Below, in pieces: positions 17,020 to 47,923 of a stretch of DNA of 58,378 bases. Below the pieces are notes generated by a model, which had not been told where the DNA came from, searched no databases, and was given only the letters and a program-made list of their open reading frames with translations. The stretch is from a virus (Duplodnaviria > Caudoviricetes), in IMG/VR virus record IMGVR_UViG_3300032020_000004, positions 1 through 58,378 of that record. The stretch is one strand, 5' to 3'. The stretch's first letter is position 1, and the number at the start of each line of letters is the position of its first letter. Made by a program: the position numbers and the translations under genes.

Positions 17020-17323
17020 CCGAGAAGTAAAAGAGGCTGTTTTAAGGCGGTCAAGTGGGTTATGCGAACGGAAATTACCGAATGGGCAACGCTGTTTAGC
17101 TCTCGGCGCTGAGTTTCATCATATAGTGCTACGGAGCCGTCACGGTAAAAGAATAAAGAAACTGGCGGACAGTGAGGAGAATTGTATGCTAATCTGTTTA
17201 ACCTGTCATCGAAATAGGCACGACGGCGTCGGCTGGAACGCCGATGCCGACAGTTTAGTACCCGGCGCTGATTTTAGGCTTGCTCTCAGAGAAGGAGGAC
17301 TAGATGGAACAAAGAACATTTAG
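17009..17323 (+). CDS. Small HNH endonuclease
   Basis: CE...C...EFHHIVLRS...NCMLICLTCH. Confidence 0.8.
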   Translation: MAFSREVKEAVLRRSSGLCERKLPNGQRCLALGAEFHHIVLRSRHGKRIKKLADSEENCMLICLTCHRNRHDGVGWNADADSLVPGADFRLALREGGLDGTKNI

Positions 17324-21920: not shown

Positions 21921-22217
21921 ATGCCACACGTGTATCTACTGCACTTCGACAAGCCGCTCCATCATGCCCAGCATTATTGTGGTTGGACGTCTAATGGTGT
22001 GGAGCAAAGACTGGCGACGCATCTGGCTGGTAATGGTTCTAAGCTGGTCAAGGCGGTTGTGGCGAATGGTTCTGAGGTGGCCGTGGCCAGGGTGTGGGAT
22101 CATGATGGCTGGCAGACAGCACGGCAGCGAGAGCGCCGTATGAAGAATACTCACCACCTGCCGTCGTATTGCCCGGTGTGCCGTGAAGCTAGAAAGAATG
22201 GAAATGGAGGGCATTAG
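21921..22217 (+). CDS. GIY-YIG nuclease-like protein
   Basis: VYLLHF...HYCGWT...RL..H..G.G...ER..K pattern. Confidence 0.85.
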   Translation: MPHVYLLHFDKPLHHAQHYCGWTSNGVEQRLATHLAGNGSKLVKAVVANGSEVAVARVWDHDGWQTARQRERRMKNTHHLPSYCPVCREARKNGNGGH

Positions 22218-24016: not shown

Positions 24017-24415
24017 ATGCAGTGGGTTGTTTTTGCTGGGTTATCTGCTTTGGCGTATGCTCTCTGGGCGTTTTTCTGGCGTGTTGGCACTGTTTATTAC
24101 AGCTGGCGTGAGATATTGTTCTTCGCTGCACTCAGTGAGATGGCAGTAGCCCTGGGAGTAGCCTGGCCAGCAAAGTTGCCACCGCTACCGGCGATTGGAT
24201 TTGGGGTGGTAGCTGGTCTAGCAGCTGCGGTTGGGTATATCCTGTTTACATGGAGTATGGCTGGTGCCAGGAGTTCGCTGCCGATAGTGGTAATGTCGAT
24301 GTATCCGGTGCTGGCGCTGGTCTTGGCTAGGCTGATTCTTTTGGAAGCAATCAGCTGGGACCGCTGGCTCGGGGTCGGGCTGGCGATGGTGGCTGTTTAT
24401 TTGGTAGTAAGGTAG
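24017..24415 (+). CDS. EamA/DMT-family small membrane transporter
   Basis: 4-5 TM helices; MSMYPVLALVLARLILLEAISWDRWLGV signature. Confidence 0.85.
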   Translation: MQWVVFAGLSALAYALWAFFWRVGTVYYSWREILFFAALSEMAVALGVAWPAKLPPLPAIGFGVVAGLAAAVGYILFTWSMAGARSSLPIVVMSMYPVLALVLARLILLEAISWDRWLGVGLAMVAVYLVVR

Positions 24416-25502: not shown

Positions 25503-25531
25503 TTGACAGGTGTTATAGTAAATGCTACAAT
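25503..25531 (+). promoter_or_regulatory. Sigma70 promoter (leaderless endonuclease transcript)
   Basis: TTGACA-17 bp-TACAAT with TG; ATG at 25540. Confidence 0.75.
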
Positions 25532-25539
25532 TACAATAT

Positions 25540-25986
25540 ATGATTACTGAGGTTGAAAAGGCATATTTCGCTGGTATATTTGATGGCGAGGGTACTATAG
25601 GGATATGCCGTAGCAATAAGCATAGGAAGTCACGGCAACTGCAAATAGCCGTCGGGCAAACAATAAAAGGTTATCCTGTATTGCGGAGGTTGGAAGAGAA
25701 ATTTGGTGGTGGCATATATCCGGGTGTTAGGTGTAAGCGTTGGTGCATAAATGGTAAGAGGGCTGGTGATTTTCTAGCTCTAATTTTACCGTATATGCTT
25801 ATTAAAAGAGATGAGGCAGAGTTAGCCTTAGAGTTTGAGAGGGAGCGATTAACGAGAGGATATAGGCGGTTAGGTCCGGCTGATATTCGTATGCAAGAGA
25901 GATATGAGGTAATGATGAAACATTTGAAACTGAAGGGAGTGAAGAATGGAAGCAGGGATACAGCGGGTAAAGGTGGAGCTGATTGA
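25540..25986 (+). CDS. LAGLIDADG homing endonuclease
   Basis: KAYFAGIFDGEG and LPYMLIKR; start placed at 25540 because the ATG at 25522 overlaps the -10 region. Confidence 0.9.
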   Translation: MITEVEKAYFAGIFDGEGTIGICRSNKHRKSRQLQIAVGQTIKGYPVLRRLEEKFGGGIYPGVRCKRWCINGKRAGDFLALILPYMLIKRDEAELALEFERERLTRGYRRLGPADIRMQERYEVMMKHLKLKGVKNGSRDTAGKGGAD

Positions 25987-27926: not shown

Positions 27927-28388
27927 ATGGAGATAGTAACCGATAAGAGGCGGTTGAGAGCTAAGTGCCATGAGGTGACTGATTTCACCGAAGTAGAACA
28001 GGTGGCCAAGGTGCTTTTTGATGTTCTGCAGAACTATAATGGCCCTGCGGGGAAGGCGGTTGGCTTGGCAGCTAATCAGGTGGGCTATAGGGAGAGAATG
28101 TTTGTGATGAGGATAGACCGGGTGCCGCCAATATGCGTTGTCAACCCTGTGTTGACAAAACAGAGAGGTAGTCAGCTGGGTCCTGAGAGTTGTCTGTCGC
28201 TCCCTGGGGTCAAGGTGCTGGTGAAAAGGCCGATGAGTATTGTGATGAAGGGAGTAAACCAGTATGGCAAGTTAGTGAAGTATAAGCTGAGCGGGATTCA
28301 GGCTCGGGTTGCTTGTCATGAGATAGACCACCTGGATGGGAAGCTGATTACTGATTATGGGGTGAAACATGAAAGCACCAAGGCTTAG
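27927..28388 (+). CDS. def: Peptide deformylase
   Basis: VGLAANQVG, ESCLS and HEIDHLDG motifs. Confidence 0.95.
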   Translation: MEIVTDKRRLRAKCHEVTDFTEVEQVAKVLFDVLQNYNGPAGKAVGLAANQVGYRERMFVMRIDRVPPICVVNPVLTKQRGSQLGPESCLSLPGVKVLVKRPMSIVMKGVNQYGKLVKYKLSGIQARVACHEIDHLDGKLITDYGVKHESTKA

Positions 28389-29205
28389 TCACAGTGGGAT
28401 AGAATATCTTGACCTTGCCTGGGGAATTTACTCCGGCTGCGATAACTGGAGAAATGGTATCTGCGGCGGGGGTGGAAAGGATTTTAACTGCTGGGCTATG
28501 CCGATTGTAAAGCGGTTTAAGAGCCACTACCCGAATGGCTTTGACCCGACCTGGTATCCCGAGGCGATGCTGTCTTCGCTGTCTGTAAAGAAGCCCAGCA
28601 TCATTGGCGTTGGCTGGGTAGGTGATATGTTTGGAGATTGGGTTGATCCGGGGCAGAGAATGTCACTGCCCTTGCCTGATGAAATATGGAGGTATGGCAG
28701 TTTTACACTGCAAGGGACACTGAGGCAGGTTTTATTTGGCGTGCTGAATAATTGTCCGCAGCACAGGTTTGTTTTCTTGACGAAGTGCTACTGGAACTTG
28801 AAGAGGTGGTCGCCGTTTCCAAAGAATGCGTGGGTCGGTGTGACGATCACTGATGGCAGTAAGCTGCGTGAGGTGCTGTATGCTTTGGCTGAAATTGAGG
28901 CTGGGCTGATATGGCTGAGCGTGGAGCCAATGCTAGGCCCGGTCGTGCCCCCGGTATGGAGGGCTGAGTGGGATATGGTTGGCTGGGTTACAGTTGGTGC
29001 TGCTACCAGACCGTACCGCCCACCGCAGGTTGATTGGGTAGAGCAGCTAGTCTATGAATGCGTTGCGGCTCGAAAGCCTGTTTTTTTGAAAGATAATCTG
29101 GTTAAGTCCCTGCCGCCCACAGTCCCGTTTTATGTTCCGCCGAAGGAGATACCGGCGAAGGGTAAGATTGAAATGGTTTACCGGCAGGAAATGCCTGACT
29201 GGTAG
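28369..29205 (+). CDS. DUF5131 (phage gp37/gp68-like, radical-SAM-related) protein
   Basis: GC...C...CWA, GDMFG, HRFVFLTK, NAWVGVT, SVEP and PVFLK motifs. Confidence 0.88.
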   Translation: MKAPRLSHSGIEYLDLAWGIYSGCDNWRNGICGGGGKDFNCWAMPIVKRFKSHYPNGFDPTWYPEAMLSSLSVKKPSIIGVGWVGDMFGDWVDPGQRMSLPLPDEIWRYGSFTLQGTLRQVLFGVLNNCPQHRFVFLTKCYWNLKRWSPFPKNAWVGVTITDGSKLREVLYALAEIEAGLIWLSVEPMLGPVVPPVWRAEWDMVGWVTVGAATRPYRPPQVDWVEQLVYECVAARKPVFLKDNLVKSLPPTVPFYVPPKEIPAKGKIEMVYRQEMPDW

Positions 29206-29216
29206 AAAGGAGAGAA

Positions 29217-29474
29217 ATGGAGAACAAACTGGAGCAACAGGTATTGAGTGAGGTGGTGTTGATGGACATACTTGGGCTGACGAAGAAACAGCTAGATCAT
29301 CTGCGCTGGGGTAAGGGTTTGCCTTATGTGAGCCTTCAAAGGAAAGCCCGGGTCTATATTGCTGATGATGTGCTGGAGTTTATTGAAAGGCAGGCCCGGC
29401 AGGAGCTTTACGACCGAGAATTTAAGGCGGCCTTGAGAGAAAAGAAACGTGGAGAAGCCAGCACTGGCCAATAA
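29217..29474 (+). CDS. Excisionase/MerR-like winged-helix DNA-binding protein
   Basis: EVVLMDILGLTKKQLDHLR..GLPYVSL..KARVY. Confidence 0.7.
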   Translation: MENKLEQQVLSEVVLMDILGLTKKQLDHLRWGKGLPYVSLQRKARVYIADDVLEFIERQARQELYDREFKAALREKKRGEASTGQ

Positions 29475-29910
29475 GAATGAAATACCGAGGATAGATGGCT
29501 GGCCGGTTCTCGGCACCGGCTACCAGTCTGGCTGGATACACCGCTGTTATTATGCTCATGCAGAGGAGGCGCTTATCGATGCTCGGCTGGCTTCCAGTTT
29601 GGTCCCGAGTAAGAGACTGTATGTGTACCCCTTTGGGCCGGTGAATCGGAGTATTGACCTGAATTTGTGGCCCGAAGGCCGGTACTGGGCGATATTTGAA
29701 AGCCCGCCGTTTCATGGCGTCTGCGGAGCATATTATTATCCGTTGCCCGATTATTACATTGTTCTTGGTGGTGATGAGTTCTTGCAGGAAGGAGATAGTC
29801 CAGAATGGGCGGAGAAAAAGAAGCAGAGAACCAGGGAGCAGTGGGAAAGCCAGCGGCACCGTGTAGAAACTGCGGTTCAAATGACTGGTGGCTCAGGGAT
29901 AATGGAATAG
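29449..29910 (+). CDS. Hypothetical protein
   Basis: 153-aa ORF overlapping its neighbours. Confidence 0.55.
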   Translation: MEKPALANKNEIPRIDGWPVLGTGYQSGWIHRCYYAHAEEALIDARLASSLVPSKRLYVYPFGPVNRSIDLNLWPEGRYWAIFESPPFHGVCGAYYYPLPDYYIVLGGDEFLQEGDSPEWAEKKKQRTREQWESQRHRVETAVQMTGGSGIME

Positions 29911-30047
29911 GTCCAGCGGAGTGGCTGTGTGGTAGATGCCATCCGCGACCGGAGGGTTCGACTGATGAGGTCATGCAAAAGATGCGGGAGTCGAGAAGGG
30001 AAGCTGGTCAAGGGGCTCTGTTTACATTGCCGCCTGGGACTGGATAG
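29805..30047 (+). CDS. Small Zn-finger protein
   Basis: PCRNCGSNDWW...WLCGRCHP; AAGGAG RBS. Confidence 0.6.
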   Translation: MGGEKEAENQGAVGKPAAPCRNCGSNDWWLRDNGIGPAEWLCGRCHPRPEGSTDEVMQKMRESRREAGQGALFTLPPGTG

Positions 30048-30276
30048 CGGCCTGATAGATTCCAAGACAAACTTGCCCAGGCAAGGCGTCGCCGAAGATA
30101 GAGTTCCTCTGGCCCGGCAGGCGAAGTTCAGGGATGATGGTAGCCTGACTGATGCGCCGGCTCGGAATAGCGAACAGCCCCAGCGGGAGAAGCAAGCCGA
30201 CCTGTTTCAGTATGAACGTGACCAGAAAAATCTCAGGCGCCTCCGGCGAGCTCAGAGGAAGCGGCGAAGCAGTTGA
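29965..30276 (+). CDS. Small Zn-finger basic protein
   Basis: MRSCKRCG...LCLHC; GGAGG RBS upstream. Confidence 0.5.
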   Translation: MRSCKRCGSREGKLVKGLCLHCRLGLDSGLIDSKTNLPRQGVAEDRVPLARQAKFRDDGSLTDAPARNSEQPQREKQADLFQYERDQKNLRRLRRAQRKRRSS

Positions 30277-30331
30277 GATAGTATTGTTAAGCATAGGAGT
30301 GTACGGATAAAGATGCACTGATATAGCAGAG

Positions 30332-30354
30332 GGTCAGCTGGGGCTGACTTTCTT
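30332..30354 (+). terminator. Intrinsic terminator
   Basis: GGTCAGC-TGGG-GCTGACT followed by TTCTT. Confidence 0.6.
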
Positions 30355-30355
30355 G

Positions 30356-30443
30356 GTTGTAGTGCTGCAACTGGTGTAAATGCTCCGATACAGGTTTGCA
30401 TCATGCCGTATGAGTGTTACGCTTATAATAGGATAAAAAATAA
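30356..30443 (+). promoter_or_regulatory. Palindrome plus promoter module
   Basis: GTTGTAGTGCTGCAAC, TTGCAT-16 bp-TACGCT/TATAAT; homologous to 21812-21900. Confidence 0.8.
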
Positions 30444-30677
30444 ATGGAAGGAGAAAGAGAGATGGAGGGCTTCTGGGAATTAGCAAAGGAACTGGAGAAA
30501 GAAGCGAATGATGCGCTGAAGTATACTTGGTTGATAAGAGGTATAACAGATGGTCGGGGTGAGGAAATCCGCGCAGAGACAGCCGAAGAAGCCAAGAGGT
30601 TATTTGCTGAGAAGTATCCTGAGAGGACTCGAGGTGGCAATCCGAAGATGACTAGCAACCCGATAAAGGTGAGGTAG
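30444..30677 (+). CDS. Hypothetical protein
   Basis: ORF directly after the promoter; start probably at MEGFWEL. Confidence 0.6.
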   Translation: MEGEREMEGFWELAKELEKEANDALKYTWLIRGITDGRGEEIRAETAEEAKRLFAEKYPERTRGGNPKMTSNPIKVR

Positions 30678-30680
30678 GAC

Positions 30681-30713
30681 TTGACTTATGTCGTATGAGT
30701 GTTTCAATATAAT
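30681..30713 (+). promoter_or_regulatory. Sigma70 promoter with the conserved spacer
   Basis: TTGACT TATGTCGTATGAGTGT TTCAATATAAT. Confidence 0.7.
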
Positions 30714-30739
30714 TAAAAGGAAAGGATAGGTGAAAGGAA

Positions 30740-31609
30740 ATGGCAGGGAAAAAGGTAGAGGTTGAAAAAATCCAGGTCATCCCGGTGAGTGAAGGCCGAT
30801 GGGCAGTGCCCTCCACTTCTCAGCCAGGGGTGAGCTATGAGGTGGTAGAGGAAGGTGGCCAGCTGGTCTGCAACTGCATGGCTGGTCTAAATGGAAGGGA
30901 CTGCAAGCACCGGAAGGCGGTGAGGATTGCGATGGAACAGCAAAAGATAAATGGTGAAAGGAGACTGGCAGGCGAGATGGTTCAACCAAAACAGGAAGGC
31001 AAGGCAAAACTGACGAAGCATGGGATTGAGTTTGGGCTGGCAACCTCAGCTCTCCAAAAGCTGATCCGGAGAGGCGATGAGGAGAATGCAATTGGAATGG
31101 CGCTGGAGCTGTATGAGGTTGCCCCTCATTATCTGGCGAAAAGGCTGCTGGTGATAGCATCAGAAGATGTAGGGTTGGCTGATCCACAGACAGTTGGGCT
31201 GGTCAATCAACTGGTGATGGGCTGGACTGAAGGAAAGAGGTTCAGCTGGTATATGTCGCCTCACCAACTAATTCAGGCAGTGATGTTGCTGTGCAGAGCG
31301 CAAAAGTCGACAGAGGTAGAGGATGCCATTACTCTCACAAAAGAGAAGCTGGAGAGGGGCTGGAAGCCGGTAATTCCTCCAGAGGCTGTTGATATGCACA
31401 CTCAACAGGGCAAGGAAATGGCGAAGAAGATGGGGATGAGCTATGATGAGCAGTGCAGGCAGTGGTATGAAGGCAGGCAGAGAGCAGGCATCTTCAGCAA
31501 CAAATATCAGGATGAGCTGAGGAAGCTGAAGCCGGAGTGGTTTCCACAACCGGTTGACGAGAGGAAGGTACGCGAGGACATCGACACGCTGTGGCCGAAG
31601 GAGAAGTAG
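30740..31609 (+). CDS. SWIM Zn finger fused to a RarA/MgsA C-terminal helical domain
   Basis: CNC...CKH SWIM motif; SALQKLIRRGD and RLLVIASEDVGLADP; no Walker motifs. Confidence 0.85.
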   Translation: MAGKKVEVEKIQVIPVSEGRWAVPSTSQPGVSYEVVEEGGQLVCNCMAGLNGRDCKHRKAVRIAMEQQKINGERRLAGEMVQPKQEGKAKLTKHGIEFGLATSALQKLIRRGDEENAIGMALELYEVAPHYLAKRLLVIASEDVGLADPQTVGLVNQLVMGWTEGKRFSWYMSPHQLIQAVMLLCRAQKSTEVEDAITLTKEKLERGWKPVIPPEAVDMHTQQGKEMAKKMGMSYDEQCRQWYEGRQRAGIFSNKYQDELRKLKPEWFPQPVDERKVREDIDTLWPKEK

Positions 31610-31819
31610 ATGAGGCAATTAACAGCGAAGGAAATTGAGCAACTGGCCAATCAGCCTGAAGTCAAACGAATAGCAGTAGAGAACTTTTTGATGAGCATGG
31701 GTGATAACGCAGAAGATGCCAGAGCTAACCTTCGGTTTGATAATAGACTGTATCGTTGGAATCATCAGACGTTTAATGCTATCCTTGATGGGATTAGATT
31801 GGCAGAGGAGAGGAGGTGA
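31610..31819 (+). CDS. Hypothetical protein
   Basis: AAGGAG RBS; VKRIAVENFL. Confidence 0.65.
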   Translation: MRQLTAKEIEQLANQPEVKRIAVENFLMSMGDNAEDARANLRFDNRLYRWNHQTFNAILDGIRLAEERR

Positions 31820-31837
31820 AAGATGAGGAACTGATAT

Positions 31838-32029
31838 TTGTTTTTGGCCGTAACCAGTACCTTGGTCGCTGTAGGCTTTATGCTAGTGGTGCTGTTTCTG
31901 ACCATGGCCCTGGGAGCTGAGTGGTATGAGCCCAATTTAGCAGTAGCACTTGTTGAGACTGCTTTGTCGGTCGGAGTAATTGGGCTGGGTTTGGCTGGAT
32001 GGGTTGTTCTGATTAAGGGAAGGAGGTGA
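31838..32029 (+). CDS. Small 2-TM membrane protein
   Basis: Two hydrophobic helices flanking YEPN. Confidence 0.55.
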   Translation: MFLAVTSTLVAVGFMLVVLFLTMALGAEWYEPNLAVALVETALSVGVIGLGLAGWVVLIKGRR

Positions 32030-32239
32030 ATGGTGAAAGAGAAGCCTGCGGATAGGCTGAAAAGACTGAGAGCTAGCAAATCGGATGTGCTTGGGAGGAT
32101 GAAAGCTATTCGCCAGTCAAAAGAAGGTGTTGGTCCTGTAGTCAGGAACGCAGACCACAAGCTGAGTATGCTGAATGATGAAGTCAACAGGATTGGCGCG
32201 AGAATAGTCAAGATAACAGATGCAATAGGAGCTGCGTGA
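32030..32239 (+). CDS. Hypothetical coiled-coil protein
   Basis: AGGAGG RBS. Confidence 0.6.
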   Translation: MVKEKPADRLKRLRASKSDVLGRMKAIRQSKEGVGPVVRNADHKLSMLNDEVNRIGARIVKITDAIGAA

Positions 32240-32240
32240 T

Positions 32241-32462
32241 ATGAGGCAGCAGGATGTGTATATTCGAGAGGGGCGGTTTGGACAGAGTAGGGTGCGTGAG
32301 TTCTCTGGCGATGTGCCTTATAATTATTGTGAGTATGCCAGTGACAAGAGATGTATTGTCAATGGCCGGAGTCACTGCCTACTGCCAAAGTGTTACCACG
32401 ATATGACGCAGGCTGAGCTGAATCACCTGAGGAAAGAATGGAAGTCGAGTGTTGACAAATGA
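32241..32462 (+). CDS. Cys-rich hypothetical protein
   Basis: AGGAG RBS. Confidence 0.55.
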   Translation: MRQQDVYIREGRFGQSRVREFSGDVPYNYCEYASDKRCIVNGRSHCLLPKCYHDMTQAELNHLRKEWKSSVDK

Positions 32463-32479
32463 AGAAATAGTGATATAAT
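32452..32479 (+). promoter_or_regulatory. Consensus sigma70 promoter
   Basis: TTGACA-16 bp-TATAAT with TG. Confidence 0.9.
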
Positions 32480-32484
32480 AATGG

Positions 32485-32568
32485 CAATGAGAGTGCCTAG
32501 AGCACCTTGAGCCGATAGAAGCCTGAAGAGCTCGACAGCGGCATTAGTTGTTTATCGGGCTCTTTTTT
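32485..32568 (+). ncRNA. Leader/attenuator RNA, copy 1, ending in an intrinsic terminator
   Basis: GTGC-CTAGA-GCAC hairpin, GAGCCGATAGA core shared with 47868, terminator AAGAGCTCGA...TCGGGCTCTTTTTT. Confidence 0.7.
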
Positions 32569-32606: not shown

Positions 32607-32930
32607 ATGAAGGCGTGGGATAAGGCGTATTTAGCTGGGCTATTGGATGGGGAGGGACATGTACGGTTGTATGGGAATAGGTTATGGGTTCAAATTGGCC
32701 TGAAGAATTGCGATGATGTTTTGAATTATTTGAAGGCTAATTTTGGCGGCAATGTATATGATGGAGGTGCTTGCCGCAGGTGGATAGTTACAGGCAGAGA
32801 AGCTCATCTCTTCTTTAGAGATGTTGAACCATACTTGAGGATTAAGAAGGATAAAGTAGCGGCGTGTTTTCTGCAAATAGGCAGGAGATTGAGATTAAAA
32901 GGCACAATAAGGAGGCGAAGAAAATTATGA
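32607..32930 (+). CDS. LAGLIDADG homing endonuclease
   Basis: KAYLAGLLDGEG and PYLRIKK motifs. Confidence 0.88.
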   Translation: MKAWDKAYLAGLLDGEGHVRLYGNRLWVQIGLKNCDDVLNYLKANFGGNVYDGGACRRWIVTGREAHLFFRDVEPYLRIKKDKVAACFLQIGRRLRLKGTIRRRRKL

Positions 32931-34033
32931 TTCGTGGAACCGATGTCAAGTTTACAGCAGAAGAGCAAGGGGCGATGATGGCTCGGCTACGTGATGTGGT
33001 CGAGTCAAATTTTTTTATGTGGGGTGACCAGCAGGAGGAGTTCCAGATCCACATGGCTGGGATGACCGGTCGTAAGTACGCCATGACCTACAGCCATGTG
33101 ACGCAGGCGACTGAGGCGATATTTGATATACTGTTCAACTGGAAGACGGCGAAGTGTATTGTTGCCTTTCAGGGTAACCAGTTTCCGTCAGTAATGTTTG
33201 CTGCTCAGAGGCAGGCGTACGATATTGAGTGGGTTGATGTCCAGCCTGAGTCGATGGCACCGGCGCTGGTTGATGTGGAGCGGATGTATAGACAGAGGAA
33301 ATTTGATGTTCTGGTCCTGCAGCATACTGGCGGATTTATTACTGATGAGGTAGAGAGCATAGCTGCCTGGTGCAAAGCCAACAAGGTGTTTTTCCTTGAG
33401 GATGCGTCACAGGCGATGGGGACTTTCAAAGAAGGCTGGGCAGCTGGGCATTGGGGCGATATTTCGGTGATCAGTCTGTCAGCCACGAAATTCCTGACTA
33501 CCGGTGGCCAGGGTGGTATTGTGCTGTTTGACGATAAAAGTCTTTGGGATCCACTGTTCCAACGCAAGGTGTATGGGCGTAGCGAGATGTTTCAGAAGGG
33601 TGACTGGGTAACCAAAGGCTGGAACTGCCAGATGACTGAGATGCAGGCAGCGGTTGGTAATGCGCTGTTTCCGTTTCTGGACGGCTGGATTGCTCATCGC
33701 AGAAAGATTGCTGATGTGTATGAGCAGCTGTTTGATGATACGTCTCTGCGACCATGTGGGCACCGCAGCGACCGGCCGAACTGGTATAAGTATCCTGTGA
33801 TGCTGCCGCCTGATGTAGATAGACAGCAGTTCAAGGAGTATTTACTGGCCCAGGGTGTGCAGTGCTCCAGCGAGATCTATTCTCAGCCAACTTACTCGAT
33901 GGGTTCGTTCGGTGGTGAGTTCAGCGATGTAAGTTTGCCTGGCTCAGAGAAGTTCTCCCGGCATCATGTTTGCCTGCCGATGCACAATGCTATGTCTATG
34001 AAAGATGCTGAGCCTGTTGGTAAAGCACTGTAA
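32927..34033 (+). CDS. DegT/DnrJ/EryC1/StrS-family PLP-dependent sugar aminotransferase
   Basis: EDASQAMG, SLSATK, GGQGG, GWNCQMTEMQAAVG and LPMH motifs; ATG at 32927 with AAGGAGG RBS. Confidence 0.9.
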   Translation: MIRGTDVKFTAEEQGAMMARLRDVVESNFFMWGDQQEEFQIHMAGMTGRKYAMTYSHVTQATEAIFDILFNWKTAKCIVAFQGNQFPSVMFAAQRQAYDIEWVDVQPESMAPALVDVERMYRQRKFDVLVLQHTGGFITDEVESIAAWCKANKVFFLEDASQAMGTFKEGWAAGHWGDISVISLSATKFLTTGGQGGIVLFDDKSLWDPLFQRKVYGRSEMFQKGDWVTKGWNCQMTEMQAAVGNALFPFLDGWIAHRRKIADVYEQLFDDTSLRPCGHRSDRPNWYKYPVMLPPDVDRQQFKEYLLAQGVQCSSEIYSQPTYSMGSFGGEFSDVSLPGSEKFSRHHVCLPMHNAMSMKDAEPVGKAL

Positions 34034-34060: not shown

Positions 34061-34348
34061 GTGAATATTAAATCACATGGTAGTGGGGAGGTGGTTGATG
34101 TGGTGGAGGAGAAGGAAGGAAGGCATCCTGGTGATAAGGGTTGCGAGTTCTCTGACAGCTGTTTAATGTGCCCTTTCCCAGTGTGTAAAGATGATGTTGG
34201 TATAGGTGAGTTTATGCGGTTTCTCAAAGGTCAGGAGGTTCGCGAGTTATGGGAACAAGGAAAGGCAGTAAGAGAGATAGCAAAAATATTGCAGGTAAGC
34301 GAGAGAACAGTCCAGCGGCGATTGCACCGATCAGGGTTGTCCCGATAG
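34061..34348 (+). CDS. Cys-cluster plus HTH transcriptional regulator
   Basis: GCEFSDSCLMCPFPVC and GKAVREIAKILQVSERTVQR. Confidence 0.8.
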   Translation: MNIKSHGSGEVVDVVEEKEGRHPGDKGCEFSDSCLMCPFPVCKDDVGIGEFMRFLKGQEVRELWEQGKAVREIAKILQVSERTVQRRLHRSGLSR

Positions 34349-35025
34349 ACAGCGTGCAACCTAATATTTATAATCCAAATGTTGAGGACCCGGACACGTT
34401 CAATGTGCTGGTTGAGAACATCAAGCAGTATGGCTTTACCGGTGCCATTGAGGTAGCTCCAAATGAGGATGGGCAGACGTTCATTATTGTTGGCGGCGAG
34501 CATCGGTGGAAGGCGGCAAAGCTAGCCGGGCTGAAGGAAGTGCCAGTGTCTATAGTTCCCTGGGATGAAGATATGCAGAAGATCCAGAGCATCAAGCTGA
34601 ATGTTATCCGTGGGAAGCTGGACCCGCACAAGTTTACCAAGCTGTTTATGGAGCTGGAGAAGAAGTATGGCCGCGACCCACTCCGCAAGCTGATGGGTAT
34701 GGGGGCGAAGGATGCCATGTTCCGCCAGCTGATGAAGGATGTCAAGAAGAGCCTGCCTCAGAGTGTGCAGGATGAGATAGAGAAGCGGGCAGATAAGATT
34801 CGGAATGTGGAGGACCTAGCGGCCGTAGTCCAGAGCCTGTATGCTCAGTATGGCAACACGCTGCAATATGGATTTGTGTTTTTCCGATTTGCAGGGAAAG
34901 AGCATCTGATGGTAAAATTAACTGAAGATGGACTGAAGCGTTTGCGAAAAATAACTCAGCAATGCTCTGAGACTGGTCAAAACATAAATGAGAGGATTGA
35001 AGAGGTGATAGTTGCCACGCGGTAA
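34249..35025 (+). CDS. ParB-like N-terminal-domain protein
   Basis: VQPNIYNPN...IKQYGF...IVGGEHRWKAA...LNVIRG. Confidence 0.85.
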   Translation: MGTRKGSKRDSKNIAGKRENSPAAIAPIRVVPIDSVQPNIYNPNVEDPDTFNVLVENIKQYGFTGAIEVAPNEDGQTFIIVGGEHRWKAAKLAGLKEVPVSIVPWDEDMQKIQSIKLNVIRGKLDPHKFTKLFMELEKKYGRDPLRKLMGMGAKDAMFRQLMKDVKKSLPQSVQDEIEKRADKIRNVEDLAAVVQSLYAQYGNTLQYGFVFFRFAGKEHLMVKLTEDGLKRLRKITQQCSETGQNINERIEEVIVATR

Positions 35026-35599
35026 GAAGATAATAGATAAACTGCCAGTAGAGGAGATAAGAGCTTTATATTGGCAGGAGCAGAAGTCTACTTATGAGAT
35101 ATCACTAATCTTTGGCTGTTGCTATAGTACGATTCGTGATTTGCTGTTCAAAAATGGCGGCTTGCGTAGGAAGACAGACGCAGCCCGGTTGGCGATAGCA
35201 CAGGGTAGACGAAAGCAGAAGAATCTTCTCAAAGGGTCGGATTCGCCAAGTTGGAAAGGTGGCCGTTATGAAAGTAAAGAAGGCTATGTATTCATATATC
35301 TTCCAAATTATCATAGGGCTATGTCCAATGGTTATGTTCGGGAACATATCTTAGTTTGGGAAGAGGCGCATGGGGAAATATTGCCAAAGGGATGGGAAGT
35401 CCATCATCTCAATGGGATTAAAAATGATAATGCCCCAGACAATCTATGTGCTCTTAGGAAAAAGAAGCATCAGCTATGGATACCGGCTTTGCAAGAGCGT
35501 ATCCGCACATTAGAAAGAGCTCTAAAGGATATAGCTGCTCACTGTGCTGAAGAGGGTAAGGATATAAATGCCGAGATGGTTAAGAGACTTGTTGGCTAG
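35012..35599 (+). CDS. HNH homing endonuclease with N-terminal HTH
   Basis: WKGGR, YVREHILVWE and VHHLNGIKNDN motifs. Confidence 0.92.
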   Translation: MPRGKKIIDKLPVEEIRALYWQEQKSTYEISLIFGCCYSTIRDLLFKNGGLRRKTDAARLAIAQGRRKQKNLLKGSDSPSWKGGRYESKEGYVFIYLPNYHRAMSNGYVREHILVWEEAHGEILPKGWEVHHLNGIKNDNAPDNLCALRKKKHQLWIPALQERIRTLERALKDIAAHCAEEGKDINAEMVKRLVG

Positions 35600-37106: not shown

Positions 37107-37553
37107 ATGGCCTTGAAAAAGAGATTAGATGCAATAACATTAGCTTATGTGGCAGGCATTGTTGATGGAGAAGGCTGTATCAGGATTGATAAAGCTAAGG
37201 GGCGTACAAGTAAAAGAGGATATTGTTATGTTCTTGTACTAACAGTCAGCAACACCAACGAATGGCTTTGTCAACATCTGAAAAATTTATTTGGCGGATG
37301 CACTTTTGCCTGTTACCATCAGAAACCGCGAAAAGTCTGTTGGGAATGGAGGGTTGCTGCATTAAAAGCTAGGGCAGTATTAGAACAGATTGCTCCTTAT
37401 CTAACCATTAAGAAGCCACAGGCTGAATTAGCACTTCAATTTCAGAAACGCCGAAGGCATAGGGGTGGGAGGATTGGAATGACTGAAGCAGAATTAGCAG
37501 TAGATGAAGCTGAATTTATTATTATGAAAGCTCTCAAAACAGGAGGTGGATGA
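37107..37553 (+). CDS. LAGLIDADG homing endonuclease
   Basis: LAYVAGIVDGEG and PYLTIKKPQAE motifs. Confidence 0.92.
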   Translation: MALKKRLDAITLAYVAGIVDGEGCIRIDKAKGRTSKRGYCYVLVLTVSNTNEWLCQHLKNLFGGCTFACYHQKPRKVCWEWRVAALKARAVLEQIAPYLTIKKPQAELALQFQKRRRHRGGRIGMTEAELAVDEAEFIIMKALKTGGG

Positions 37554-38450: not shown

Positions 38451-39215
38451 ATGAACTTATTAAGAGAAGTTGCAGAAAAAGTAAATAGACCATTCTCAGT
38501 TAAGTTGGCTGAGACTAGGGAAGTTATTAAACACCACTTTGAGGAGTTTGGCAATAAGGTGGCAGTTGCTTTTTCTGGCGGTAAGGATAGCGAGGTTGTT
38601 CTTTGGCTATGTCTCCAAATCAATCCGAATGTGCCAGTAGTATTTAATAATACGGGCGTTGAATATCCTGAGACAGTTAATTTTGTGGCGAAGTTAGCTG
38701 AGGAGTGGAACTTAAATCTAATCGTTACTCATCCCGAAAAAAGTTTCTGGGAATGTATTGAACAATATGGATTTGCCAAGGGTAAGACAATGAAAGGAAA
38801 GGGCAATGCCCGATGTTGTTATTGGCTTAAAGAAAAGCCGATGCTTTTGGCGATACGCCAGAATGATTGGCTTGGTTATTTTACGGGAGAAACAGCAAGT
38901 GAAAACCGCAATCGGATGTTTTGGGCTAAAGAGAAGGGTATGTGCTCACACCTTAAAAATGAGGATGTGTGTAAAATAAAACCGATATTGTGGTGGACTG
39001 AAGCGGAAGTTTGGGACTTTATTCACAAAGAGGGCTTACCACTCAATGAGGCTTACATCAAGGGAGCAAAAAGGGTTGGCTGTTTGCCTTGCACAGCTTA
39101 TAGCAAGTGGGAACAAGAGATGCAGAGACTTAACCCAAAGCTCTATGAAATTATTAAGTTGAGAAAGGATAATCAATATGTCATGCGACTTCCAATGGCT
39201 GTTCCCAATCCGTAA
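38451..39215 (+). CDS. PAPS reductase-family (CysH/DndC-like) protein
   Basis: AFSGGKDS PP-loop, CCYWLKEKP, PILWWT and RVGCLPC motifs. Confidence 0.92.
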   Translation: MNLLREVAEKVNRPFSVKLAETREVIKHHFEEFGNKVAVAFSGGKDSEVVLWLCLQINPNVPVVFNNTGVEYPETVNFVAKLAEEWNLNLIVTHPEKSFWECIEQYGFAKGKTMKGKGNARCCYWLKEKPMLLAIRQNDWLGYFTGETASENRNRMFWAKEKGMCSHLKNEDVCKIKPILWWTEAEVWDFIHKEGLPLNEAYIKGAKRVGCLPCTAYSKWEQEMQRLNPKLYEIIKLRKDNQYVMRLPMAVPNP

Positions 39216-39520: not shown

Positions 39521-39694
39521 ATGATATGCACTAGATGCGGAAGGGAATTAGCCGAATGGCACTTTGGGGAAGAGCATTATTGTCAAATGTGTTGGGAGGC
39601 TCATTGCAGCGAAGAGTGGTGGCGATTAAATGTTTGGCAGAATGGAATCTTCCCAATCCGTAATGAGAGTATAGAATATGAACCCATATTTTGA
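39521..39694 (+). CDS. Small Zn-finger protein
   Basis: MICTRCG...YCQMCWEAHC; AAGGAG RBS; lies between repeat copies 3 and 4. Confidence 0.65.
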   Translation: MICTRCGRELAEWHFGEEHYCQMCWEAHCSEEWWRLNVWQNGIFPIRNESIEYEPIF

Positions 39695-40757
39695 AGATAA
39701 TCTGGTAAAAATCTATAACGGCGATGCACGCAATATGAGCAAATTGCTAGATAATTCCGTTCAATGCGTGGTGACTTCTCCACCATACTGGGGTTTAAGA
39801 AAGTATTCTGGCTTACCTGATTTGATATGGGGGAATAAGGATTGTGAGCATAGGTGGGGGAATATAATCCCCAATCCGATGTGTAAATCAGGTAAGCACA
39901 GTTCAAAAAGCATTGTCGCCGAAGGCACTAAAATAGCTGAGCACGAGATTAGGATAAATAGCAATCAAGGCTCGTTCTGTTCTCTCTGCGGTGCGTGGAA
40001 AGGTCAGTTAGGGCTTGAACCTACACCCGAACTCTATCTTGACCATCTTGTTGAGATATGCCGTGAGATAAAAAGAGTAATGAGAAAGGACGGCGTATTT
40101 TTCCTTAATTGCGGGGATAGCTATATGAGCCACGGTGGGGACAGGTCTAAAATTGGTGGTTTTCAAGCTAATCCTAATCAAGACAGATTGGAAGCAGAAA
40201 ACTCTATGTCTATGAAGAAGAAAACAAATGATATTCTAAAAGATAAAGACCTTTGCTTAATACCGTTCCGTCTAGCTATTGCCCTACAGAGTGATGGCTG
40301 GTGGGTAAGGTCGATTATTATCTGGTCAAAGCCCAATCCTATGCCAGAGAGCGTTACCGATAGACCCACAGAGAGCCACGAATATATCTTACTTTTAACA
40401 AAATCGGCTCGCTATTACTGGGATGCGGAGGCGGTGCGAGAACCCTATACCGAACCACTGAATCGCTGGGGTGGCCCCGAATTCCGAGATAGTAGCCATA
40501 ATATTAGAAGTGTCTGGGAATTTCCCACACAACCTTACCCCGAAGCCCACTTTGCCGTATTCCCAGAGAAGTTACCAGAGATATGTATTAAGGCAGCCAG
40601 TAAAGTAGGTGACCTAATCCTTGACCCCTTTGTAGGGAGTGGGACTACTCTATGGGTAGCAAAGAAATTGGGTAGGCGGGCTGTGGGGTATGAGTTATCA
40701 GAAGAATACTGTCAGCTTGCCCTTGAAAGAAATAGGCAGATGGCTATGGAAGTATAA
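39678..40757 (+). CDS. Beta-class N4-cytosine/N6-adenine DNA methyltransferase
   Basis: VTSPPY motif IV precedes LDPFVGSGTT motif I. Confidence 0.95.
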   Translation: MNPYFEDNLVKIYNGDARNMSKLLDNSVQCVVTSPPYWGLRKYSGLPDLIWGNKDCEHRWGNIIPNPMCKSGKHSSKSIVAEGTKIAEHEIRINSNQGSFCSLCGAWKGQLGLEPTPELYLDHLVEICREIKRVMRKDGVFFLNCGDSYMSHGGDRSKIGGFQANPNQDRLEAENSMSMKKKTNDILKDKDLCLIPFRLAIALQSDGWWVRSIIIWSKPNPMPESVTDRPTESHEYILLLTKSARYYWDAEAVREPYTEPLNRWGGPEFRDSSHNIRSVWEFPTQPYPEAHFAVFPEKLPEICIKAASKVGDLILDPFVGSGTTLWVAKKLGRRAVGYELSEEYCQLALERNRQMAMEV

Positions 40758-41812: not shown

Positions 41813-44209
41813 ATGACGACTGAAGTAATTGCAGCGCTGCCACCTGAAATAGAAGAGTACCGGCAGCTGATTAAGAGCCGGCTGAGGTGGCATACTCGCT
41901 TTGTTCATGGGTATAGTATGCCTTGGCATCAGCTGGTCTGGACTGAGGCACTCGAGGATTTTTCCATCAAGCGTCTGCTGATTGTTGCACCGCCTAAGTA
42001 TGGTAAGGCTTTAGCTTTAGATACACCAATACCAGTCCCGACAGGCTGGAAGACTATGGGAGAATTAAAAGTTGGCGACGCTGTATTCGCTGGTGATGGT
42101 ACGGTCACGAATGTGGTTGGCGTGTCACCGATTTGGAGAGGCCGTCGCGTGTTTCGCGTCGAGGATAAACTAGGTCATTATGTAATCGCTGATGCTGCAC
42201 ACGAATGGATAGTGCGATTGAACCGTGAACGGCCCACGGTGTATACAAGGCATGAGACGGAATGGCTTTATAGGCGCCAGCACGGATTATCTGGCGCTCG
42301 AGCATTTTATCTGGGGGTGCATGGTGGATTAAAACTCCCTGACGTTCCGTTGCCGATACCACCATATACATTAGGTGTCTGGCTAGGAGATGGAGACTCA
42401 GACGCTGGTAGATTCACCTGCGGCGATGCGGACCGGGCCTTCATTTCATCTGAGATAAGAAAAGATGGATTCCAAGTAAAAGACCGCACTAGGTTAAGAG
42501 CCACTATTTACGGGCTGTCTCGCTTATTAAGGATAAATGGACTATTGCAGCACAAGAAAATCCCTGCGGAGTATCTGAGGGCATCGCCGAATCAGAGATT
42601 GTCTCTGTTACAAGGTTTAATGGATACCGACGGGTATGTTGCTAAAGACGGTGATGGCGGTGAGTTTTGCAATATGAATGAGGGGTTGGCTGAACAGGTT
42701 GCCGAACTGGTGGTATCGCTCGGTATGAAGTGCTCTTTGGTTTCTGGTAACGCCATCTGTCAAGGGAAGGACTGTGGTAAAAAATACCGTGTTCTGTTAC
42801 GTGGCGAGAGTGTCTTTCGCTTGCCCCGCAAACTGGCGAGATGCCATAAATCATCAAGGTCTGGTCATTATATCACCATATTGCCTGCGGGGGTGGCTGA
42901 TACTAAATGTATAGAGGTTGAGCATAATTCCCATACTTTCCTGGCGGGAAAGGGTATGTTTCCAACCTGTAATTCTCCGGCGGTCGGTGTTGACTACTTG
43001 GGCTGGCGCATTGGCAATAACCCAGAGGGGTATCATTGTATCTACGTGTCGAACACAGTGTTACAGGCTAATAGGTTCAGCGTAGCCCTGCGTGACACGA
43101 TTGCCTACAATGAGAACTACCGCTTTCTGTATGGCTTGGAGCCTGATGTTAATAAGGGATGGGCGGAAAGGGAGTGGTTTGTCAAAAGAACTAATGAGGC
43201 AGATAAGGACCCGACGCTGCAGGCCTGTGGTGTAGGTGGGCCGCTTCTTGGCGCTACTGTAGAGGAGGTCATATTTGATGATATAGCTGACCAGGAGAAT
43301 ATGGCGACTGAGTATCAGAGGCAGAAGCTAATGGAGTGGGTTAGAGGAACGCCTATGAGCCGTCTGGTCCCTGGGGCGACTAGAGTGATTATGATTTGCA
43401 CTCGGTGGCATGAGAACGATCCGGCTGGCGAGTTTGAGAAAGAAGGCTGGGTAGTTATACAGCAGCAGGCGATTGATGAGGATGGGAAGCTGACCTATCC
43501 AGGCTATTGGACGTGGGAAGATTTAGAGGACCGGCGCCGAGACCTTGGCAACAGACTGTTTGAGATGATGTTTCAGGGCAGGGTAATGCCGGCTGAAGGT
43601 GGTATTATCAGGAAGGAGTGGTGGAGGTACTGGAAGCAGGGCATGGCTCCTTGGCAATTGCCTATCGACAGCTCAGATTTTAAGCCAATCAGGGGGATAG
43701 TTCAGAGCTGGGATACAGCATTCAAGGAGAAGCAGGCTAATGATTTCAGTGCCTGTTCTACTTGGGCTGTATTAGATACTGGCTATTATTTGCTGGATGT
43801 CTGGCGAGGCAAGGTGGAGTTCCCGAGGCTGAAGCAGGTGGCTGTGAGCCTGCATGACCAGTGGAAGCCGATAGCGGTATTGATTGAGGATGCCGCTTCC
43901 GGCCAGTCGCTGATTCAGGAGTTAAAATCTAATACCAGAATACCGGTGATTGCCATTAAGGTTGACAAAGACAAGGTGTCCAGAGCTCATGCGGTGACCC
44001 CGATGTTTGAAGCTGGTAAGGTGTTCTTGCCCGAAGAAGCACCCTGGAGGCCGCAGTTTGAGTATGAGCATGAGATATTCCCCGGTGGTATCAATGATGA
44101 CCAGGTGGACACGACCACGCAGTTTCTGAACTGGGCGAGGAGATATGTGGTAACTGGCCCACAGAAGGCAACAGGGCTGGAGAAGAAATCGATGTGGAAG
44201 GTGGTATAA
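41813..44209 (+). CDS. terL: Terminase large subunit containing an intein
   Basis: Walker A PPKYGK|S, IFDD, TRWHEND; nuclease motifs SWDTA, IEDAASG and DDQVD. Confidence 0.97.
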   Translation: MTTEVIAALPPEIEEYRQLIKSRLRWHTRFVHGYSMPWHQLVWTEALEDFSIKRLLIVAPPKYGKALALDTPIPVPTGWKTMGELKVGDAVFAGDGTVTNVVGVSPIWRGRRVFRVEDKLGHYVIADAAHEWIVRLNRERPTVYTRHETEWLYRRQHGLSGARAFYLGVHGGLKLPDVPLPIPPYTLGVWLGDGDSDAGRFTCGDADRAFISSEIRKDGFQVKDRTRLRATIYGLSRLLRINGLLQHKKIPAEYLRASPNQRLSLLQGLMDTDGYVAKDGDGGEFCNMNEGLAEQVAELVVSLGMKCSLVSGNAICQGKDCGKKYRVLLRGESVFRLPRKLARCHKSSRSGHYITILPAGVADTKCIEVEHNSHTFLAGKGMFPTCNSPAVGVDYLGWRIGNNPEGYHCIYVSNTVLQANRFSVALRDTIAYNENYRFLYGLEPDVNKGWAEREWFVKRTNEADKDPTLQACGVGGPLLGATVEEVIFDDIADQENMATEYQRQKLMEWVRGTPMSRLVPGATRVIMICTRWHENDPAGEFEKEGWVVIQQQAIDEDGKLTYPGYWTWEDLEDRRRDLGNRLFEMMFQGRVMPAEGGIIRKEWWRYWKQGMAPWQLPIDSSDFKPIRGIVQSWDTAFKEKQANDFSACSTWAVLDTGYYLLDVWRGKVEFPRLKQVAVSLHDQWKPIAVLIEDAASGQSLIQELKSNTRIPVIAIKVDKDKVSRAHAVTPMFEAGKVFLPEEAPWRPQFEYEHEIFPGGINDDQVDTTTQFLNWARRYVVTGPQKATGLEKKSMWKVV
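42008..42973 (+). mobile_element. Class 3 intein with LAGLIDADG endonuclease (322 aa)
   Basis: Starts ALALDTPIP (Ala1); W in ADAAHEW, C in TKCIEV, T in PTCN|S; endonuclease motifs LGVWLGDG and LQGLMDTDG. Confidence 0.92.
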
Positions 44210-47399: not shown

Positions 47400-47588
47400 A
47401 TGGCAGATGCTGAAATTCGTTGTAGGAAATGCGGCAAGCTCCTAGCTAAGGATGTTGAAGGCGTACTGGAAGTGATGAATGGCAATAAGGCTATCAGGGT
47501 GTATGGGGCTGTAGCGGTGGCTATTGATTGCCCACGTTGCGGAGCCACTGTTGATTTGCCCCGTAAATTGCCACTGAGGAGTAAGTAA
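47400..47588 (+). CDS. Mu Com-like Zn-ribbon regulator
   Basis: EIRCRKCGKLLAK...IDCPRCG matches the Com pattern IRCxxCxKLL...CPRC. Confidence 0.75.
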   Translation: MADAEIRCRKCGKLLAKDVEGVLEVMNGNKAIRVYGAVAVAIDCPRCGATVDLPRKLPLRSK

Positions 47589-47589
47589 G

Positions 47590-47811
47590 TTGCCGAGCAG
47601 GAAGTGGCGGTTAGGTATATTGATACTGTGCCGGAAGTGTGGCCAGCCTGGAGGCACGTTAAAGAGGATTGATAAAGGCGTTTATGAGCATGAGCAGTGT
47701 CCGGTTGTTAAACCGAAGGCGAGGAAAAGTAGTCTTGTAGTTGCTAGTAGCCCACTGGTGACAGCGCGGCGCAAACTGCCACCCGGGCTGTTGCGGACAG
47801 GTCATTCTTGA
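47590..47811 (+). CDS. Small Zn-binding protein
   Basis: CRKCGQPGGTL...YEHEQCP. Confidence 0.5.
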   Translation: MPSRKWRLGILILCRKCGQPGGTLKRIDKGVYEHEQCPVVKPKARKSSLVVASSPLVTARRKLPPGLLRTGHS

Positions 47812-47836
47812 CAAGAAATCACGGAGGTGTTATAGT
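47808..47836 (+). promoter_or_regulatory. Sigma70 promoter of the head operon
   Basis: TTGACA-17 bp-TATAGT with TG. Confidence 0.88.
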
Positions 47837-47842
47837 AGTACT

Positions 47843-47923
47843 AATTTAATAAGAGGCTAGAAGCCCGGAGCCGATAGAGGCTGGAAGCCCGACTTGCGGT
47901 ATTGTGAGTCGGGCTTTTGTTTT
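47843..47923 (+). ncRNA. Leader/attenuator RNA, copy 2, ending in an intrinsic terminator
   Basis: AGAGGCT(A/G)GAAGCCCG x2 flanking GAGCCGAT; terminator AAGCCCGAC...GTCGGGCTTTTGTTTT. Confidence 0.75.

Follow-up and report, generated by a model that had tools for sequence, protein, structure and literature searches.

Predicted promoter-proximal leaders with tandem hairpins, and a Com-like candidate factor, at the two late-operon boundaries of a tailed phage genome

How a tailed phage could express packaging and head genes that lie only behind transcription terminators is the question raised by IMG/VR record IMGVR_UViG_3300032020_000004, a virus sequence of 58,378 bases (Duplodnaviria; Caudoviricetes) that was analysed over its whole length and is referred to here as the window. 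Its two internal boundaries, between early and packaging genes and between packaging and head genes, are occupied by two leaders, here called leader 1 and leader 2, and both late blocks sit behind a terminator that follows their own promoter. Since the packaging and head genes are found only behind these terminators, some form of antitermination must exist. Judged from comparative sequence analysis, the chances are about even that each leader is a promoter-proximal attenuator, which would keep its late operon off until a phage RNA-binding protein, most likely a Com-like zinc-ribbon protein encoded in the same genome, blocks the terminator.

Leader 1 opens with a promoter at 32452..32479 (+ strand, as are all window features below), in which TTGACA (32452-32457) and TATAAT (32474-32479) match the consensus at 12 of 12 positions across a 16-nt spacer carrying TG. 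It is the top promoter-like site in the 30-50 kb part of the window, and a comparable promoter (TTGACA, 17-nt spacer, TG, TATAAT) stands at the syntenic site of G001, a related contig. The first hairpin (hp1, 32491..32506) has the arms GTGC (32493-96) and GCAC (32502-05) around the loop CTAGA and is flanked by GAG and CC. An 11-nt core, GAGCCGATAGA, follows at 32509..32519 and is made up of the linker and of the TAGA that forms the 5' flank of the second hairpin. This hairpin (hp2, 32520..32532), a candidate antiterminator, reads AGC-CTGAAGA-GCT, and its 3' arm is at the same time the start of the 5' arm of a predicted intrinsic terminator at 32525..32568 (GAAGAGCTCGA ... TCGGGCTCTTT; 5' arm at about 32525-32535, 3' arm at about 32555-32565, six T to 32568). 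The minimum free energy (MFE) of leader 1 is -26.5 kcal/mol. A simple terminator scan did not list this terminator, which is attributed to its loop being longer than the 8-nt limit of the scan.

Leader 2 repeats these parts about 15 kb downstream. Its promoter (47808..47836; TTGACA, 17 nt with TG, TATAGT) matches 11 of 12 consensus positions and is followed by hp1 at 47855..47865 (GGCT-AGA-AGCC, alternatively GGC-TAGAA-GCC), the second copy of GAGCCGATAGA at 47868..47878, hp2 at 47879..47889 (GGCT-GGA-AGCC, with AGCC as the base of the terminator 5' arm) and a predicted intrinsic terminator at 47882..47923 with a 17-pair stem, TTTTGTTTT, which the terminator scan lists at 47882-47919. The next start codon lies 39 nt after the T tract in leader 1 and 100 nt after it in leader 2. 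The first-pass annotation had described both copies as one promoter-hairpin-core-terminator architecture, and all of the features it listed are present where it placed them. The core is a different matter: it is identical in the two copies, which are its only occurrences in the 58,378-base record (both on the + strand), but across the leader family only its TAGA part is kept.

When hairpins were enumerated in twelve leaders, each leader was found to be a tandem of two similar units. A unit consists of (A/U)AGA, a stem of 3-5 bp, a loop mostly of 5-7 nt that usually begins with C and finishes in GA, the 3' arm of the stem and CG. The units read GAGTGC-CTAGA-GCACC and GAAGC-CTGAAGA-GCTCGA in leader 1, and AGAGGCT-AGA-AGCCCGG and AGAGGCT-GGA-AGCCCGA in leader 2. 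The two units of one leader are slightly more alike than units of different leaders (similarity 6.39 versus 5.57), a weak effect that was equalled in 198 of 5000 permutations. Two other uses of such a leader were set aside: a leader peptide, as a short ATG frame is present only in leader 1, and sequestration of a host CsrA-type protein, as GGA lies in a loop only at hp2 of leader 2.

Homologous leaders were found in related phages once an alignment-based search with the head protease had been used to recruit contigs. Searches of named phages with two 4-kb pieces of the window at the nucleotide level gave no match, and a locus search with the single protease protein found nothing. An exact-motif route (CTAGA N4-12 GAGCCGATAGA in viral contigs) was rejected; none of its 71 loci read as a promoter-terminator context, and their number fits chance by a rough estimate. 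Among the recruited contigs, 13 carry a leader upstream of the gene for a Mu gpI-like head protease. The unit shared by the relatives runs from a TTGACA promoter through a small hairpin and an element resembling TAGAGG to a terminator of the GAACCCGA type, and the leader-bearing relatives are L074, L075, L076, L077, L081, L155/L156, L159, L161, L183/L184, L176, L192 and L246. Measured by eye, hp1 stands between about 10 and about 39 nt from the -10 box in these relatives.

A covariance model, R1, was derived from a MAFFT alignment in which hp1 is out of register, and both window leaders belonged to its training set. Run over the whole window with filters off, the model recovered only leaders 1 and 2 (77.2 and 49.8 bits), the next best hit scoring 10.6 bits. 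Leaders outside the training set scored 32.0 bits (L192), 28.6 bits (L176), 42.7 bits (L246) and 25.1 bits (L240, E 7.6e-4). No Rfam family (release 15) matched the whole window at the gathering score, nor the two leader-holding 3-kb stretches at E <= 5.

The contig G001, a 43.7-kb relative syntenic with the window, has leaders at both syntenic positions. Its second leader, L240, corresponds to leader 1; it is followed by a ParB-methyltransferase gene, is situated 15.2 kb upstream of the G001 protease leader (15.4 kb separate the two leaders of the window) and has an hp1 whose stem is identical to that of window leader 1, with the loop CAAGA. This leader was missed by R1 at E <= 1 over whole records and was found by a promoter-plus-terminator scan, and then by R1 in a smaller search. 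As G001 carries both leaders at matching spacing, the two-leader layout is conserved. The earlier suggestion that two diverged copies point to a real leader motif is therefore borne out by homologous leaders in other phage contigs and by their covarying stems.

The strongest evidence concerns the relation between hp2 and the terminator. The 3' arm of hp2 is formed by the first 3-4 nt of the terminator 5' arm, so that hp2 and the complete terminator stem are mutually exclusive. An alignment of 18 rows (A6) was made to R1, which itself contains no hp2 pairs; these rows are related to one another, and among them are two near-duplicates, a partial row and a probable false match. In this alignment 94.3% of the 53 hp2 cells are paired and all three pairs (columns 50-52 with 60-62) show changes on both sides, the closing pair being UA in seven rows, CG in six and UG in three. 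None of 500 shuffles matched either the paired percentage or the covariation score, and sliding the partner gave pairing of no more than 61.5%. Column 60 covaries with its terminator partner as well (GC in nine rows, AU in seven); one base thus has two alternative partners. The terminator helix is 92% paired with double changes in seven of its eight pairs, and hp1 and the terminator taken jointly were equalled by none of 500 shuffles. The predicted terminators have the form expected of intrinsic terminators, a G+C-rich stem directly before a T tract, with compensatory changes. Comparison among the relatives thus establishes the promoter, the two predicted hairpins, the predicted terminator and the overlap of hp2 with the latter, and the RNA structure predicted for the leaders is well supported. 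On its own, hp2 amounts to -0.7 kcal/mol in leader 1 and -3.9 kcal/mol in leader 2, compared with -15.6 kcal/mol for the outer terminator helix of leader 1; being far weaker than the terminator, hp2 would need a bound factor.

A different competitor had been proposed in the first-pass annotation, in which GAGCCGATA of the 11-nt core pairs with TATCGGGCTC of the terminator 3' arm as an antiterminator and some signal picks the fold. This is energetically possible in leader 1: with the helix enforced the fold reaches -24.4 kcal/mol against the MFE of -26.5, a gap of 2.1 kcal/mol, it makes up about 6% of the ensemble, and the duplex alone is worth -10.0 kcal/mol. It is not conserved, however. Across the 18 aligned leaders 68.9% of its cells are paired compared with a shuffled mean of 70.4%, 433 of 500 shuffles were as high, and the covariation score equals the shuffle mean; the terminator 5' arm is also nearer to the 3' arm and pairs with it more strongly. 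It was concluded that the helix is a by-product of repeated RCCCG motifs, and a switch based on it is barely credible. From the alignment, the conserved competitor of the terminator is predicted to be hp2, which was absent from the earlier description.

A mechanism may be proposed on this basis. Host sigma-70 RNA polymerase would start at the near-consensus promoter and by default stop about 80 nt later at the strong intrinsic terminator, which would also halt transcripts coming from the upstream operon. A protein sitting on both hairpins would hold hp2 closed and block the base of the terminator stem, and the polymerase would then read on. Leader 1 would in this way control the operon of DNA-modification, terminase and portal genes, and leader 2 the head operon, probably along with the tail genes. 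The most likely factor would be the Com-like protein encoded at 47400-47588, which would melt a terminator and not, as in Mu, a translation-inhibiting stem. We infer protein binding, the Com-like identity of the protein and read-through on binding; the Com-like protein appears the best candidate by analogy, because Com binding melts an adjacent stem in Mu.

According to PMC6483171, SELEX with a Com zinc finger gave NGAGNNCC(N)2-3GAGNNCCNN, and the motif that Com recognises is CC(N)2-3GAG, presented in the loop of a hairpin whose stem has 3-4 bp, the loop-closing pair being invariably C-G and the GA dinucleotide crucial. The same paper states that the Com site of Mu adjoins the translation-inhibition stem and that binding of Com melts this adjacent stem. 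Com controls mom or methyltransferases (PMC6483171, PMC3299994). The mom target given in the first-pass annotation does exist in Mu, whose record has this sequence within com, shortly before the start of mom, and PMC6483171 quotes it as well.

The likeness claimed earlier between the 5' hairpin and this site is exact for one copy and fails for the other. In leader 1, hp1 (GAG-TG-CC-TA-GAG-CA-CC, 32491-32506) matches the SELEX consensus GAGNNCC(N)2-3GAGNNCC exactly, with a 4-bp stem, a C-G closing pair and the loop motif CCTAGAG at 32496-32502, whereas hp1 of leader 2 is without the Com loop motif. The short hairpin with a C-G closing pair is found in both, provided that hp1 of leader 2 is read as GGC-TAGAA-GCC. 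The exact bipartite consensus has its sole window match here (shuffle mean 0.095; 19 of 200 shuffles with at least one) and recurs in leader 1 of G001 and in L183/L184. In 15 distinct leaders CC(N)2-3GAG occurs 15 times, where dinucleotide shuffles average 6.3 +/- 2.65 (this number being reached in 3 of 500), and GAGNNCC nine times compared with 3.2 (2 of 500); the Com loop motif is placed in hp1 of seven of the 15. Leader 1, which bears the exact motif, heads DNA-modification genes, in parallel with the control of mom and methyltransferases by Com. A translation-inhibition stem over a start codon was not found at the leaders, where the adjoining stem is the terminator with its T tract. A stricter detector of Com-type hairpins, applied to the 3' ends of Com-like genes, recovers the Mu site itself and gave four matches in three of nine other loci, with about one expected from background density; Com-type hairpins near other Com-like genes are suggestive only. 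In L254 (2642-2760), three tandem small hairpins with the loops AGAGAA or ACAGAA were seen by eye downstream of a Com-like gene of canonical size, that is without an insertion, and just before the ribosome-binding site of the next gene.

The Com-like gene (47400..47588) encodes a zinc-ribbon protein of 62 aa, the candidate trans-acting factor, and stops 220 nt before the leader 2 promoter. The protein matches phrog_6417, 'translational regulator' (E 9.3e-6), and PF10122 (Zn_ribbon_Com) at 23.2 bits with a cut-off of 22.9. Its family comprises 34 clusters, all metagenomic, one of them named at source 'phage FluMu protein Com'; C8, C11, C44 and C47 are invariant in the 34 members, of which 20 match PF10122 at E <= 0.01 and 26 the generic Zn_ribbon_3. 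Aligned with Mu Com in hhalign, the family profile reached a probability of 94.1% with an E of 1.2e-7 over 33 columns that include both CxxC knuckles, and BLASTP with the single sequence aligned 12 residues, eight of them identical (E 4e-4). The structural model is all-beta with a mean pLDDT of 70.1. Foldseek found no PDB match for it at E <= 0.001, the best (0.67) being generic zinc-ribbon ribosomal and polymerase subunits, and a sequence search of PDB chains returned only generic zinc fingers. Each phage has one Com-like gene. In 12 of the 13 contigs this gene precedes leader 2, the protease leader, at a distance of about 1.9 kb in G004; in L077 only about 190 nt of sequence are available upstream of the promoter.

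A number of observations weigh against the Com-like protein as the factor, or against the proposed RNA mechanism. The window protein is the only one that passes the Pfam cut-off, and barely, with generic zinc-ribbon models scoring similarly; of eight A5-type relatives scanned with PF10122, three reached 18-19 bits and the rest gave no match. There is a 17-residue insertion between its two knuckles. The adjacency of the Com-like gene and leader 2 may be plain synteny among related phages. On the RNA side, the Com loop motif has no copy at all in six of the 15 leaders and is confined to the linker, outside the hairpin loops, in window leader 2 and in L081. Hairpins with the loop motif and a stem of at least 4 bp occur seven times on the + strand of the window, so this feature alone is unspecific. 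The stretches that follow more distant Com-like genes show no excess of hairpins with a stem of 4 bp or longer and a loop finishing in GA (22 in 3600 nt versus 333 in 44,941 nt, or 0.0061 versus 0.0074 per nt). In the structural alignment hp1 is only 76% paired; it is out of register in several A6 rows, which may account for part of this low pairing, and the hp1 counts are probably underestimates. Only two hp2 pairs are formed in leader 1 of G001, and hp2 is poor in L192.

A further difficulty is the position of the Com-like gene, 15 kb away from leader 1 and behind terminator 1. Action on leader 1 would therefore need leaky read-through, a feedback loop or an internal promoter. For the initial supply of the protein the options are a leak plus feedback, or an 11/12 promoter-like site at 34346. 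The latter (34346-34374; TAGACA, 17 nt, TATAAT) is situated inside the ParB-like gene downstream of terminator 1 and could drive the remaining operon, the Com-like gene included, without read-through of leader 1. As regards other known factors, no ANTAR, Q, N, CAT_RBD or NusG-like family was found among the 43 early-region open reading frames (ORFs; 39 scanned at E <= 1e-4, plus 4), and PHROG scans of the window revealed no known antiterminator family. Nothing on Com-like proteins acting in antitermination was found in the literature searched, which covered sources outside subscription journals and included PMC13551039.

Could the same RNA mechanism work with another small phage protein, or with a host protein? 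The borderline membership in the Com family and the six leaders lacking the loop motif leave room for it, and an early-encoded factor would fit the timing of leader 1 better than a gene behind terminator 1. Three ORFs offer themselves. An early one of 115 aa (29929-30276) combines two CxxC motifs with a C-terminal tail rich in arginine, RRLRRAQRKRRSS, and matched no family in PHROG and Pfam scans. Another lies just upstream of leader 1 (32241-32462); BLASTP did not match it to the ORF that holds this place in G001. The third is a second small Cys-rich ORF (47590..47811, 73 aa) that stops within the leader 2 promoter; it has relatives in G001, L075, L155 and L246 and is absent from L076, L159, L161 and L183, all of which bear leaders. 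Among the candidates examined, the Com-like gene alone recurs in 12 of 13 contigs and alone has relatives for which binding to hairpins of this kind is known, and a factor other than the Com-like protein is considered rather unlikely. We regard as improbable a processive mechanism of the lambda N/nut or HK022 put type, in which the overlap of hp2 and terminator would be incidental. Small hairpins with 5-nt loops just after a promoter do resemble boxB in form, two stem-loops in that position have the layout of put, and a processive mode would be useful for operons of 15 kb or more. Against this, no boxA-like element was seen in the linker by eye, PHROG and Pfam scans gave no N, Q or NusG-like family, and a factor-independent put-like RNA beside the terminator would give no regulation. 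The three-way covariation of the hp2 5' arm and both arms of the terminator points instead to direct structural competition, and the variable distance between -10 box and hp1 argues against a Q-type mechanism based on promoter-proximal DNA and a pause.

It is also conceivable that there is no switch. The terminators would then insulate the operons, and the promoters would yield a short stable RNA (cf. lambda 6S) together with some constitutive read-through, the hairpins protecting this RNA or giving it a function of its own. The default product is necessarily a short RNA of about 80 nt with hairpins, and the factor is a candidate only. The packaging and head genes, however, lie only behind the terminators, and the promoter scan revealed no other strong promoter downstream of leader 2. 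Covariation of the hp2/terminator overlap would be unneeded for stability, and the tandem units differ between phages, with the weak sign of likeness within a leader given above (198/5000). This possibility is accordingly judged highly improbable, and the attenuator with a Com-like factor is retained as the working explanation.

Measured against Mu Com/mom, the attenuator reading shares the short C-G-closed hairpin with a CC(N)2-3GAG loop, within GAGNNCC(N)2-3GAGNNCC (exactly so in leader 1 hp1), beside an inhibitory stem, as well as a small phage-encoded zinc-ribbon protein with four cysteines and a controlled operon that opens with DNA-modification genes. It differs in that inhibition would come from a predicted intrinsic terminator some 80 nt downstream of the promoter and not from a stem hiding the start codon, in that there are two tandem hairpins of which the second overlaps the inhibitory stem, and in that each genome has two leaders, the second of them heading head genes. 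The window protein, unlike Mu Com, also carries the 17-residue insertion, and its gene is 15 kb from leader 1.

The PR'/tR'/Q system of lambda is built from a strong constitutive promoter with a terminator close behind it, which yields a short RNA until the phage antiterminator is made, and the regulator gene lies directly upstream. The leaders resemble it in the promoter-then-terminator default and in the candidate regulator gene directly upstream of the leader 2 promoter. Lambda Q binds DNA at the promoter and acts at a sigma-dependent pause at a fixed distance, whereas the conserved covarying element here is an RNA at a variable distance from the promoter, and no Q family protein appeared in the scans. 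Targets of ANTAR proteins consist of a pair of hexaloop hairpins, with A and G at loop positions 1 and 4, and the protein favours the hairpin over the terminator. Tandem small stem-loops of which the second overlaps the terminator 5' arm are common to the present leaders, the ANTAR dual hairpins and the RAT of BglG/SacY. The loops here are not of the ANTAR type, being mostly of 5-7 nt with C first and GA last; Pfam scans of the early region and of small ORFs gave no ANTAR or CAT_RBD protein, and Rfam gave no match. With lambda N/nut the leaders share a small hairpin with a 5-nt loop early in the transcript and, as proposed here, its use in antitermination; they differ in having a hairpin that overlaps the terminator and loops unlike GNRA, and neither a boxA nor an N-like family was seen.

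A distant clade, with a protease about 30-35% identical, has comparable elements. Upstream of the protease match, a TTGACA promoter is followed by a hairpin GGCGG-C(N)2-3GA-CCGCC and by a second hairpin, GTTGG-CCCGA-CC(G/A)AC, which overlaps the terminator 5' arm; such leaders were seen in L079, L082, L083, L088, L091-L093, L097, L100, L105, L114, L162, L186, L194, L196 and L205. The stems are nearly invariant in this clade. Between the terminator and the protease gene, overlapping the protease start, there is a different small zinc-ribbon ORF that begins with MECPNC and has no Com Pfam match. In seven of the 23 distinct sequences of the clade a tRNA-Met (CAT) gene is placed between the arms of the first hairpin (GGCGG ... 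CCGCC), at L078:2667-2740, L084:2823-2896, L086:2671-2744, L087:2663-2736, L089:2642-2714, L095:2663-2736 and L170:404-477; processing of the tRNA would cut the leader RNA.

The window is about 70% complete, with a G+C content of 48.6% and all of its long ORFs on the + strand, and the gene order obtained from PHROG and Pfam scans identifies it as a circularly permuted siphovirus-like genome. According to these scans, tail genes occupy about 1-13 kb, and early and replication genes extend from a promoter near 13.9 kb to 32.4 kb, among them a DnaC-like loader, a sliding clamp, exonucleases and a peptide deformylase. Between leader 1 and leader 2 lies the modification and packaging block, with an aminotransferase (32864-34033), a ParB-like nuclease (34249-35025), a PAPS-reductase-like protein (38451-39215) and a DNA methyltransferase (39678-40757), a probable DNA-modification set that opens the leader 1 operon, followed by the large terminase at 41813 and the portal at 44270. 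The head block behind leader 2 consists of the Mu gpI-like protease (48023, PF10123), a scaffold protein and the major head protein.

Genes resembling homing endonucleases are unusually numerous (775-1293, 16438-17019, 17009-17323, 21921-22217, 25522-25986, 32607-32930, 35012-35599, 37107-37553 and 46647-47396). They comprise HNH-type PHROG matches, one GIY-YIG and one weak LAGLIDADG-like match directly after leader 1, the last of which is absent from G001. An EamA-like transporter fragment of 132 aa and the peptide deformylase (24017-24415 and 27927-28388) are auxiliary genes of the early region. The large terminase ORF (41813-44209) encodes 798 aa, with PHROG matches split between residues 43-286 and 395-787, and that of G001 (reverse orientation, 28773-32432) encodes 1219 aa, which suggests that the terminase gene carries an insertion, perhaps an intein or an endonuclease.

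To our knowledge, the late-gene switches of tailed phages are understood in only a few models, namely lambda Q and N, Mu C, P2 Ogr and the T4 sigma factors. The leaders add a compact predicted regulatory unit that spans about 120 nt, has no Rfam counterpart and occurs in many uncultured phages; it would clearly be off by default and has a small protein as its candidate partner. More broadly, and tentatively, Com-family zinc-ribbon proteins in widespread environmental tailed phages may be transcription antiterminators that act on tandem hairpins with C..GA loops overlapping promoter-proximal terminators; they would time the modification-packaging and head operons, possibly as a self-reinforcing late switch, and the design may be general for Mu gpI-type head modules. 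Should the Com-like protein prove to be the factor, a family known only for translational activation would gain a second mode of action, and the leader and protein would form a simple orthogonal RNA-protein switch. The leader unit could also serve in annotation, to delimit early from late operons in metagenomic genomes of such phages.

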